Shown here piece by piece: positions 2,406 through 25,127 of a stretch of DNA of 25,127 nt (position 1 is the stretch's first letter; each line of letters starts with the position of its first letter). The notes under the pieces were generated by a model. That model made no database searches. It had not been told where the DNA came from and saw only the letters and a list, made by a program, of their open reading frames with translations. Source of the stretch: a virus (taxonomy: Duplodnaviria; Caudoviricetes); IMG/VR virus record IMGVR_UViG_3300048855_000184, positions 1-25,127 of that record; one strand, 5' to 3'. The position numbers and the translations under genes were made by a program.

Positions 2406-2591
2406 GTGGCACAGGATTGGAAAGCTGAGCAGCAGGTATGGCTCGCAAAAGCGCGCGCAGCGGGCCCCGGCTACCGCGTGTGGCGCTGGCACGAGGTGAT
2501 CGAGCCAGAGAGACAGGAGATCTGTCACTTCAAGCTGCTGGCACCGGGCGAGAAGCTTCCGGACGGCGCGGGTGTGGTGGTCGAGCCGTGA
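2406..2591 (+). CDS. Hypothetical protein (61 aa)
   Basis: GTG start, protein-like composition, GTGA overlap with next ORF. Confidence 0.55.
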   Translation: MAQDWKAEQQVWLAKARAAGPGYRVWRWHEVIEPERQEICHFKLLAPGEKLPDGAGVVVEP

Positions 2592-2776
2592 GCTTCGGGG
2601 CCGACCGGCGCTCGAGACGGCGGCGCGACGACGCGGTCGCTCGGCACGCTTCTGCCGCTGCTGCCGCACGGACACACCGGCGGCGATCTTACCCAGCGGT
2701 ACGCGCGGAAGTTGTGCTGGTCGTAGCGGCGGCGGTGCTGGTGATTGTCGCCGGCATGCGGGCGTGGTCCCTCTGA
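2588..2776 (+). CDS. Small Arg-rich protein with C-terminal transmembrane helix (62 aa)
   Basis: GTGA coupling at 2588-2591; ends EVVLVVAAAVLVIVAGMRAWSL. Confidence 0.5.
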   Translation: MSFGADRRSRRRRDDAVARHASAAAAARTHRRRSYPAVRAEVVLVVAAAVLVIVAGMRAWSL

Positions 2777-2781
2777 CCTAA

Positions 2782-2871
2782 CCGCCACCACTCCGCGCCC
2801 TACGTCACGGGATACGGCTGCTGGCGGGGGTGATCGGGCGGGGGTGACGCGTATCCGAGCAGCTTGCCGCC
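2782..2871. other. Non-coding element with serial, non-nested complementary blocks
   Basis: Consecutive 5-7-nt blocks each find their reverse complement about 40 nt downstream in the same order (see findings); function unknown. Confidence 0.6.
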
Positions 2872-2898
2872 TACCGGCGCCGCATCTAGCTAGCGGCC

Positions 2899-3327
2899 AT
2901 GATCATCCTCGCCGCGCTCGCCGCAGCCGTCATCCCCACCGGATCAACCTTCACCTGTACACCGACCCGCGTCTGGGACGGCGATGGGCCGGTCTGGTGC
3001 AAGGAGGGGCCGCGGTTGCGTCTCGCGGGGATCGCCGCGCGGGAGTCGGACGGGACCTGCCGCAGCAACCAGCCATGTCCGCGCGCGACGGCTGAGCAGG
3101 CGCGCCAGGCGCTGGTTCGGTTGCTCGGGACGGCGACCGGCAAGAGCCCCCAGGGCCATATCCTCGTTCGCGGGCCAGCGCTGCGGTGCACCTCCACCGG
3201 GCAGGCTGTCGGCAGCAGAACCGGCGCGTGGTGCGTGTCTCCGACCGCTGGCGACATCTCGTGCGCCATGGTGGCAAGCGGCACCGTCCTGCGGTGGTCA
3301 CGGTATTGGAAGGGGCACCGGTGTTGA
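2899..3327 (+). CDS. Secreted thermonuclease (SNase-like) family protein
   Basis: Signal-like N-terminus; VWDGDG, RLRLAGIAARE, RTGAWC, DISCAMVASG motifs; Cys-rich. Confidence 0.8.
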   Translation: MIILAALAAAVIPTGSTFTCTPTRVWDGDGPVWCKEGPRLRLAGIAARESDGTCRSNQPCPRATAEQARQALVRLLGTATGKSPQGHILVRGPALRCTSTGQAVGSRTGAWCVSPTAGDISCAMVASGTVLRWSRYWKGHRC

Positions 3328-23570: not shown

Positions 23571-25127
23571 TCAGTTCGCGCCGGGCTGCTTGTAGGCCGA
23601 GCGCCAGTTCACGGCGCCGACGCCGTAATCGTGGCGGACCTTCCACTCGACACCATCGACGCGCCAGCCGTCCTGGCTATCGGTGAACGGCTCGGTGACG
23701 CCGTTGAGGAACACCACCTCGATCGCCGGCGCGACGTTCGGGTCCGCGAAGGCGTACTGCGCGGTTCCGGCGAGCCGCGGAGTGTCGACGATATCGGAGA
23801 ACATGCCGTTCACGATGTTCGGCACCTGGAACTTACCCGTGGTGTCGGGATCGTACAGCGCGCCGTTGATACGCCGCGCTGCGCCGCCGAGCTCGATCGG
23901 CAGCAACAGGATGCTCGGGCGGATATCGAGGAACTCGTTCCCGCTGAGGTCCTTCTGCTTCGACATTGCGACGCGGATCGCGTCGAACGATGCAACCGAC
24001 GGTGCAGCGCCGGACCCTGCGAGATTGAAGTGCTCCGCCGCGAACAGCGCGATGCCATCGTTCATCGTCGGGTTGCTGTTGAGCAGAGCGAACACGTCGA
24101 TCTCGATCGTCAACTTGGCGGCGCGGCCAAGGTCCACGGCGAGACCGGAGAACACCTCCATGTCGTCGTTGACGATCGCCTGACGCGACAGGTTGATGAT
24201 GTTGCCCTTCGTGGTCGCTCGGATCTTCTCCTTCGCGAGATCCGGGATCGGCTTGTTCTTGAACTCGCCGACCTCGTTGACGTTGTCGAGGGCGCCGAAC
24301 GAACCGCGCAGGTAACGGCTGTGATCGCGGAAGTCGGTGACCGTACCCACGCCGCAGAACCGGGTCCAAGTATCCGGCGTGGTCGCATACGCCGCCTGCA
24401 GGGTGCGATGGATCGCGTTCTCGAACAGGACCGGGAAGTCGCTTGTCGACTGCGTCATGACTGCACCCTGCCAGGTCATCGCCTGCCGCACGATCTGGTC
24501 CGGATCGCGGGTGGTGATATTCACGCCCAGGTTGCCGAGCGATTCACGCGCGAGATCGACGTTGCGCACACCGCGGAACTCGCCCGGGTCGATCTTGATG
24601 GGCTTGCCGTTCATCGCGGCCGCCTTTTCGACGAGGTGGGCGACGCCCGCCTTGACGAGCAGCCAGTTGGTGGCGCCCTCCCGGAACTTCTCGCGCTGGT
24701 CGACGGTCACGCGCGCGGGGCTGTTGTGACCGACGTTGGCCGCGTCACCTTCCTCGGCGAGCTTGTCGAGGATCTTCTCGCGAGCGGTGGCAAGCGCCGT
24801 GCCGTCGTTAACAAGGCCGTCGATGAAGTCTCCGGGCAGGTTGTGCTTCGTACCGAGGGCGCGGATCGTCCCGACCCGGAGACGTTCGGCGTTGACGGCG
24901 TTCTGAACGTCGGCGGACGTCAGCGCGACGACCGACGTGTCGGTCTGGGGCGCCGGACTGTTGGCGGCCGGCGTCAGGGCGAGAGCACCGGTTGCCGGGA
25001 GCGCATCCTGTGCGTTGAGCGCCACGGCAGACTTGACGATCTTGTCGATCTCGTCCTGCGTGCCGCCGTCCTTTTGGAACGTGGCGATCGCGGCAACCAG
25101 CGCCGCGCGGGTCTTATAGAGGTCCAT
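23571..25127 (-). CDS. Major capsid protein with N-terminal scaffold-like region (may extend upstream as a protease fusion)
   Basis: QSTSDFPVLF, VTDFR, SRQAIVNDD, WKVRHDYGVGAVNWR; ORF touches the window edge. Confidence 0.9.
   Translation of the reverse strand: MDLYKTRAALVAAIATFQKDGGTQDEIDKIVKSAVALNAQDALPATGALALTPAANSPAPQTDTSVVALTSADVQNAVNAERLRVGTIRALGTKHNLPGDFIDGLVNDGTALATAREKILDKLAEEGDAANVGHNSPARVTVDQREKFREGATNWLLVKAGVAHLVEKAAAMNGKPIKIDPGEFRGVRNVDLARESLGNLGVNITTRDPDQIVRQAMTWQGAVMTQSTSDFPVLFENAIHRTLQAAYATTPDTWTRFCGVGTVTDFRDHSRYLRGSFGALDNVNEVGEFKNKPIPDLAKEKIRATTKGNIINLSRQAIVNDDMEVFSGLAVDLGRAAKLTIEIDVFALLNSNPTMNDGIALFAAEHFNLAGSGAAPSVASFDAIRVAMSKQKDLSGNEFLDIRPSILLLPIELGGAARRINGALYDPDTTGKFQVPNIVNGMFSDIVDTPRLAGTAQYAFADPNVAPAIEVVFLNGVTEPFTDSQDGWRVDGVEWKVRHDYGVGAVNWRSAYKQPGAN

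Follow-up and report, generated by a model that had tools for sequence, protein, structure and literature searches.

Blocks that are complementary to each other in the same (parallel) order are a feature of synthetic switchback DNA and RNA, in which two strands pair through uniform 6-bp half-turn domains without linkers and which, in the accessible parts of the two reports, have been tested with two domains (PMC10680705, PMC11667664). In those parts, the authors call for a search for such structures in nature (PMC10680705, PMC11667664), and switchback RNA is described as forming without Mg2+ and as being cut by RNase III as much as the duplex (PMC11667664). Within one strand, mutually crossing helices of the order ABC...A'B'C' make up L-type and higher k-crossing pseudoknots; the L-type (ABCABC) is called exotic in the available text of one source (PMC4708108), and the largest crossing (clique) number tabulated for bpRNA-1m(90) in the available part of another is 4 (PMC13221419). 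With regard to transcription, the accessible text on Zymomonas mobilis gives a sigma-A layout of TTGNNN and TANNNN with a spacer of 17 and a discriminator of 6, together with many leaderless transcripts (PMC7566282).

Here we analyze a 122-nt gap between two genes of a virus record that holds six complementary blocks in unchanged order, hereafter the ladder. The preliminary description of this DNA had matched it to switchback geometry. The same block order and near half-turn lengths stand, whereas the uniform 6-bp domains without linkers do not occur, the ladder being one strand with blocks of 5-7 bp, linkers of 0-3 nt and a hypothetical formation. As a pseudoknot it would comprise 5 or 6 mutual crossings in 82 nt, as against the 4 tabulated. 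Our literature search, with most subscription papers outside its scope, returned no natural switchback example. Type III toxin-antitoxin systems such as ToxIN and CptIN, in which direct repeats of one pseudoknot unit are cotranscribed with a cytoplasmic RNase, resemble the ladder in placing a pseudoknot-like RNA upstream of a small nuclease gene. They differ from it in that the ladder units are not repeats, a predicted promoter stands between them and the gene, and the N-terminus of the protein is hydrophobic; the only direct repeat found here is of 11 nt, and the protein matches no toxin family.

The ladder in its prophage setting

The window, that is, the whole stretch of 25,127 nucleotides analyzed, encodes head, tail and lysis functions on its minus strand and also has an accessory region, in which genes for MucR and SRAP occur. 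Its first 620 bases are matched at 82% by a genome of the genus Sphingomonas (G097), and positions 464-518 are matched at 100% over 55 nt at a second place in that genome (L407). This segment, found twice in G097, looks like an attachment-site repeat, which we take to be a tRNA 3' end; ARAGORN detected no whole tRNA there. The repeat adjoins the host hspQ/YccV gene, and the closest related prophage (L038) begins at the same place. The window is a Sphingomonas-type prophage. A 456-nt Logan contig from sequencing run X1 covers positions 2565-3020 with 0 differences, which rules out an assembly artefact across the gap, with the reservation that X1 may be the source sample; run X2 contained relatives only. 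The features of the region are the following.

2406 to 2591, plus strand: 61-aa ORF, first gene of the upstream pair, with 90-93% relatives in two viral contigs
2588 to 2776, plus strand: 62-aa ORF, stop codon 5 nt before the ladder, common to L038, L277 and L278
2782 to 2822, plus strand: ladder unit 1, six blocks of 5-7 nt with a 7-nt period, first half C-rich
2822 to 2863, plus strand: ladder unit 2, six reverse-complement blocks, order unchanged
2823 to 2847, plus strand: direct repeat GGCGGGGGTGA, two copies with a 14-nt period, supplying partners for three to four blocks and permitting a nested alternative hairpin
2864 to 2892, plus strand: predicted sigma-A promoter of the nuclease gene, -35 TTGCCG (2864-2869), 17-nt spacer, -10 TAGCTA (2887-2892), 6 nt to the ATG
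2899 to 3327, plus strand: 142-aa protein, named thermonuclease/YncB-family by sources, phrog_18798, hydrophobic N-terminus

All six complementary pairs of the preliminary description are present, and they are better described as two 41-nt units (2782-2822 and 2822-2863) of six blocks each, which together make 36 bp including one G-U. The blocks are, in order, CCGCCA/TGGCGG, CACTCC/GGGGTG (with the G-U), CGCCC/GGGCG, CGTCAC/GTGACG, GGATACG/CGTATCC and GCTGCT/AGCAGC, of lengths 6, 6, 5, 6, 7 and 6 at offsets of 40, 38, 40, 41, 40 and 41, with linkers of 1, 1, 2, 1 and 0 nt on the 5' side and -1, 3, 3, 0 and 1 nt on the 3' side. The ladder thus spans the gap between the 62-aa and 142-aa ORFs from 5 nt past the upstream stop codon to the base preceding the -35 box. 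The pair E/E' of that description (2823-2827/2867-2871) draws on bases that the first block already uses. The direct repeat, 11 nt repeated, allows as nested alternative a 15-bp hairpin of -22.5 kcal/mol. The single G-U, which had been read as weakly favoring a plus-strand RNA, is too little to fix the strand. Four G-tracts (3, 5, 3 and 5) lie at 2809-2845, and a G-quadruplex is possible from them; the folding model did not pick it. A hidden ORF over the spacer was likewise rejected, the minus-strand frame having no start codon and no convincing translated match among the loci compared.

The nuclease gene and its predicted promoter

The 142-aa protein has 1,975 relatives and found no match in sequence searches of Pfam, NCBIfam and PDB; its hydrophobic N-terminus makes export likely. 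It has four cysteines in pairs and a stretch RLAGIAARE, in which Ala takes the place of the acidic residue of staphylococcal nuclease-like proteins. The predicted promoter ahead of it has the layout TTGNNN-17-TANNNN-6 and a start at the ATG in common with the alphaproteobacterial leaderless sigma-A promoter, as given in the available part of that source (PMC7566282), with the difference that ours is predicted and that several relatives have TGG for TTG. The layout is kept in all five loci of at least 85% identity (the window, L038, L159, L160 and L278), with TA at -12/-13 and TTG or TGG 23 nt before. Among 81 distinct upstream sequences, drawn from those 107 loci (of 122) whose start was usable, TA is most frequent at -12 (18 sequences) and TTG/TGG at -35/-36 (15 and 11), and a Shine-Dalgarno-like word occurs in only 16. 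Three further contig ends carry TGGACG at the -35 place next to unrelated spacers. The boxes are conserved across the nuclease-like family while the 17-nt spacer between them varies freely. An E. coli-type promoter scan missed this promoter because it demands a T at -7. Beside a tRNA-like 3' end, locus L159 carries repeated TACCCC/GGATACCCCC motifs (2040-2170 and 2850-2900), which resemble integrase arm sites.

The nuclease gene would accordingly have its own conserved, predicted leaderless promoter, starting where the ladder ends. The six-block ladder stops one base before the -35 hexamer and E' overlaps the hexamer, so that block E' is explained by the -35 box lying there. With a predicted leaderless promoter separating it from the ATG, the ladder probably does not belong to the nuclease mRNA, and this contradicts the earlier suggestion of a leader switch, which would place the ladder within the transcript of that gene. 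If transcribed, the ladder would be the trailer of the upstream ORFs, with read-through from upstream possible; the pattern scan detected neither a terminator pattern nor a promoter for a ladder RNA.

Relatives of the spacer

Searches with the spacer itself returned little. BLAST against phages and plasmids gave only chance pieces of 20-60 nt, and against 401 Sphingomonas genomes a best E value of 1.8e-5 over 29 nt. Exact gapped patterns of the ladder occurred in none of the viral contigs, none of the metagenome contigs and 0 of the 401 family genomes (these 401-genome tallies include two unpublished genomes, G148 and G315, used nowhere else). A 14-nt exact scan of the viral contigs reached at least 118 loci, and among the matches listed there was no likeness to the spacer beyond 19 nt. 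A metagenome scan with the 62-aa upstream ORF yielded 598 candidates, none of which was confirmed as a relative. In the genomes related to G001 (151) and to G097 (61), the only matches were to the nuclease. Rfam gave nothing meaningful at either threshold and no family at the gathering threshold. The ladder belongs to no known RNA family, and it is like synthetic switchback RNA in block order only. A tie to the nuclease family is ruled out, since an upstream ladder of more than 16 bp was present in 0 of 120 nuclease loci (40 viral, 80 genome). The ladder of the window was equally absent from the four nuclease loci of at least 85% identity (L038, L159, L160 and L278) and from the three fetched loci with the upstream ORF (L038, L277 and L278). 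Near L159 there is a ladder containing CGTCAC/GTGACG, with 21 bp at offset 80, but it has no homology to that of the window.

A family that freely changed all its blocks would escape sequence searches, and for this reason a shape-only scan was made of 94 related prophage loci and 2 Mb of host-genus DNA. It detected no ladder of the window's rank; ladders near that rank do occur there, some of them inside genes.

The closest prophage, L038, has a nuclease 92% identical to that of the window and the same upstream ORFs, with an 86-nt spacer versus 122 nt in the window. L277 and L278 have the upstream ORF in common with the window and then other sequence. Aligned in register, the first 33 nt past the upstream stop codon are identical to L277 at 19 of 33 positions (p 0.002), and positions 2829-2863 (-70 to -36) to the L038 spacer at 17 of 35 (p 0.015). 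L277 retains CATCAC in place of the window block CGTCAC and has no partner for it downstream; L038 retains GTGAC and CCGAG without the partners that these have in the window. In L277 (1870-1990), the reading frame of the upstream ORF continues past its TGA through 38 open codons that look coding, and the window has 'PY(V/I)T' at the corresponding position; the spacer may therefore be what is left of a gene end.

Under a relaxed ladder score limited to offsets 34-48, L038 shows a ladder (offsets 37-44) whose score was equalled in 3 of 400 shuffles; four of its six 5' arms lie inside the ORF, and some bases are used twice. The other five of the six relatives tested are unremarkable, 47-238 of 400 shuffles reaching theirs. 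An L038-like contig from run X1 has 7 listed changes at paired positions of this weak ladder, of which five break the pair, one turns it into a wobble and one turns a wobble into G-C; none of the seven is compensated, no partner position being listed as changed. Covariation among homologous spacers, put forward in the preliminary description as the means of checking each helix, thus gave no support, as no homologue was found and no listed change was compensated; absence of covariation is a weak test here because true orthologous spacers are few.

Chance, fold and competing readings

Against shuffled sequence the ladder stands out. With Watson-Crick pairs only (blocks of at least 5, gaps up to 4) it scores 29, a value reached by 0 of 5,000 dinucleotide shuffles (best 23). 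With G-U allowed it scores 40, counting seven helices of which two are mutually exclusive, and 0 of 250,500 shuffles scored identically reached this (best 31; extrapolated rate 8e-8 per 122-nt region). Equal patterns in shuffles, which the preliminary description had named as a refuting result, did not occur. The best ladder in 22.6 Mb of Markov sequence was 32 versus 40, and an iid count, which runs 2-3-fold low, gives one ladder per 3.3 Gb. It had also been claimed that neither a hairpin nor a simple duplication produces such an arrangement. When the 5' unit was shuffled and the repeat-bearing 3' part left intact, the best score in 1,210 tries was 20, so that the direct repeat by itself is not enough to yield the ladder; the converse gave at best 23, again in 1,210 tries.

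Real sphingomonad DNA has a heavier ladder tail than shuffles: L262 has a six-block pure Watson-Crick ladder of 31, which exceeds the window's 29, and by the G-U score the best other ladder in 4.9 million strand-bases of loci is 34 (L366), while G001 and G097 (4.0 million strand-bases) have best ladders of 33 and 32. A composition-aware score, weighted by local composition and using no base twice, was applied to 8.03 million strand-bases (loci L159-L275 and L293-L490 and the window, exact duplicates removed) and ranked the window ladder first at 27.3 bits, followed by 24.9, 23.3 and 22.4. The tail fitted without the ladder itself predicts 0.16-0.37 ladders of such rank in this sample, or 1.0-2.3 per 1,000 windows. 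Over a scan of about 250,000 windows, if one third are assumed to be equally GC-rich and 10-15% of their DNA to be intergenic, roughly 10-30 intergenic chance ladders would be expected; the stricter estimate, from shuffles, gives about one. All ladder scores were devised after the ladder was seen, a bias in its favor.

Several other same-order arrangements were encountered. The window itself has a second one, of three blocks and 22.1 bits, inside the capsid gene (23977-24071), an example of a chance ladder. Long REP-like hairpins of TCGAG units in G001 (L391:1110-1200, L451:13940-14040 and L422 near 10100) score as parallel ladders through their internal repeats. L469 (1940-2020, minus strand) has a compact ladder scoring 32, with blocks of 6, 6 and 8 bp at offset 20-23, just before an ATG.

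We consider it probable that the window ladder, too, is a chance product of a fast-changing spacer, helped by the 14-nt duplication, and it probably does not fold as one structure. The spacer would be a mosaic of three parts: a C-rich stretch behind the stop codon of the upstream ORF, of which L277 has a decayed version, a 14-nt duplication rich in G, and the flank just ahead of the predicted leaderless promoter, of which L038 has a decayed version. The C-rich stretch facing the duplicated G-rich stretch would give three weak blocks, and three or four further blocks would be added at a level met about once per megabase. Duplication, strand skew and promoter box explain the ladder in part; it is real and rare, but it stands alone, the few orthologous spacers that could be compared do not keep it, and chance could produce it in a scan as large as this one. 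Against chance stand its top rank in everything scanned, its distance from the shuffle and Markov nulls, the poor nested folding of the region, its neat fit to the gap with blocks of 5-7 bp and one G-U in 36, and the relaxed ladder of L038, in one of six relatives. An origin by serial micro-inversion of a 41-nt duplication is unlikely, as it requires six separate events at one offset.

The same neat fit and local significance against shuffles, together with the block lengths of 5-7 and the 7-nt period, are what a real plus-strand RNA (about 2777-2863) would show, either a 3' trailer or a small RNA gained recently in this lineage; we regard this as unlikely. Pairing could be cotranscriptional, unit 2 blocks joining unit 1 in a raft of three to six side-by-side half-turn helices, or unit 1 of one molecule could pair with unit 2 of another in a true two-strand switchback. 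Stacking contributes -11 to -14 kcal/mol in every helix, synthetic switchback RNA is reported to form without Mg2+, and the region nests worse than 193 of 200 shuffles (z +1.6), which would leave room for such a fold. The lack of homologue, covariation, promoter and terminator pattern speaks against it, as do the irregular linkers of 0-3 nt, compared with none in the synthetic design. By geometry, a single strand could hold all six helices only as a closed ring in which helix 6 abuts helix 1 without a linker and with the wrong end facing, so that three or four helices, or pairing between two molecules, would be more plausible; moreover, the available part of the bpRNA source gives no natural 6-crossing (PMC13221419). 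A first natural switchback RNA of 82 nt, with the second half wound along the first in up to six half-turn helices, whether folded into a ring with six crossings or joined head to tail into dimers or polymers, is a reading that we hold to be unlikely. The preliminary idea of a nuclease-resistant RNA loses its ground, since switchback RNA is no more resistant to RNase III than duplex in the accessible text (PMC11667664), and with it falls the reason given for a protective role.

Smaller parts of the ladder could also be functional, readings that are quite unlikely even when those at partial and at DNA level are taken jointly. Any two neighboring blocks have ordinary H-type topology, and either a conventional hairpin or a pseudoknot of two helices could lie where the upstream transcript ends or by the -35 box, the rest being chance extras. 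This would fit the nested 15-bp hairpin that the 14-nt repeat permits and the 9-bp stem of L038 (offset 40), the 3' arm of which extends over the -35 box of that locus. That stem is not the window's stem by alignment and has an uncompensated mismatch in the X1 variant, and in the nested ensemble of the window no listed helix rises above probability 0.14; this reading is highly unlikely. More improbable still is a role in double-stranded DNA, in which the repeat (-76 to -52) and CGTCAC/GTGACG would bind proteins ahead of the nuclease promoter and the ladder would be a by-product: the repeat lies just upstream of the predicted -35 box and GTGAC at -55 is common to L038, but neither the viral contigs searched nor the closest relatives contain the repeat, and the GTGAC-CCGAG-promoter pattern was found only in L038 and in one chance match.

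Were the fold real, it would provide the natural example that the switchback papers call for, with more crossings than are tabulated for known RNAs. If the ladder arose by chance, as we favor, it serves as a calibration: GC-rich genomes yield same-order ladders far more often than shuffles suggest, and sightings of this kind therefore need homologues. The ordinary role of the region is most likely to end the upstream two-gene transcript and, if the promoter is used as predicted, to carry the start of nuclease transcription. A predicted leaderless promoter ahead of this phage nuclease family is a modest result, and it is new here.
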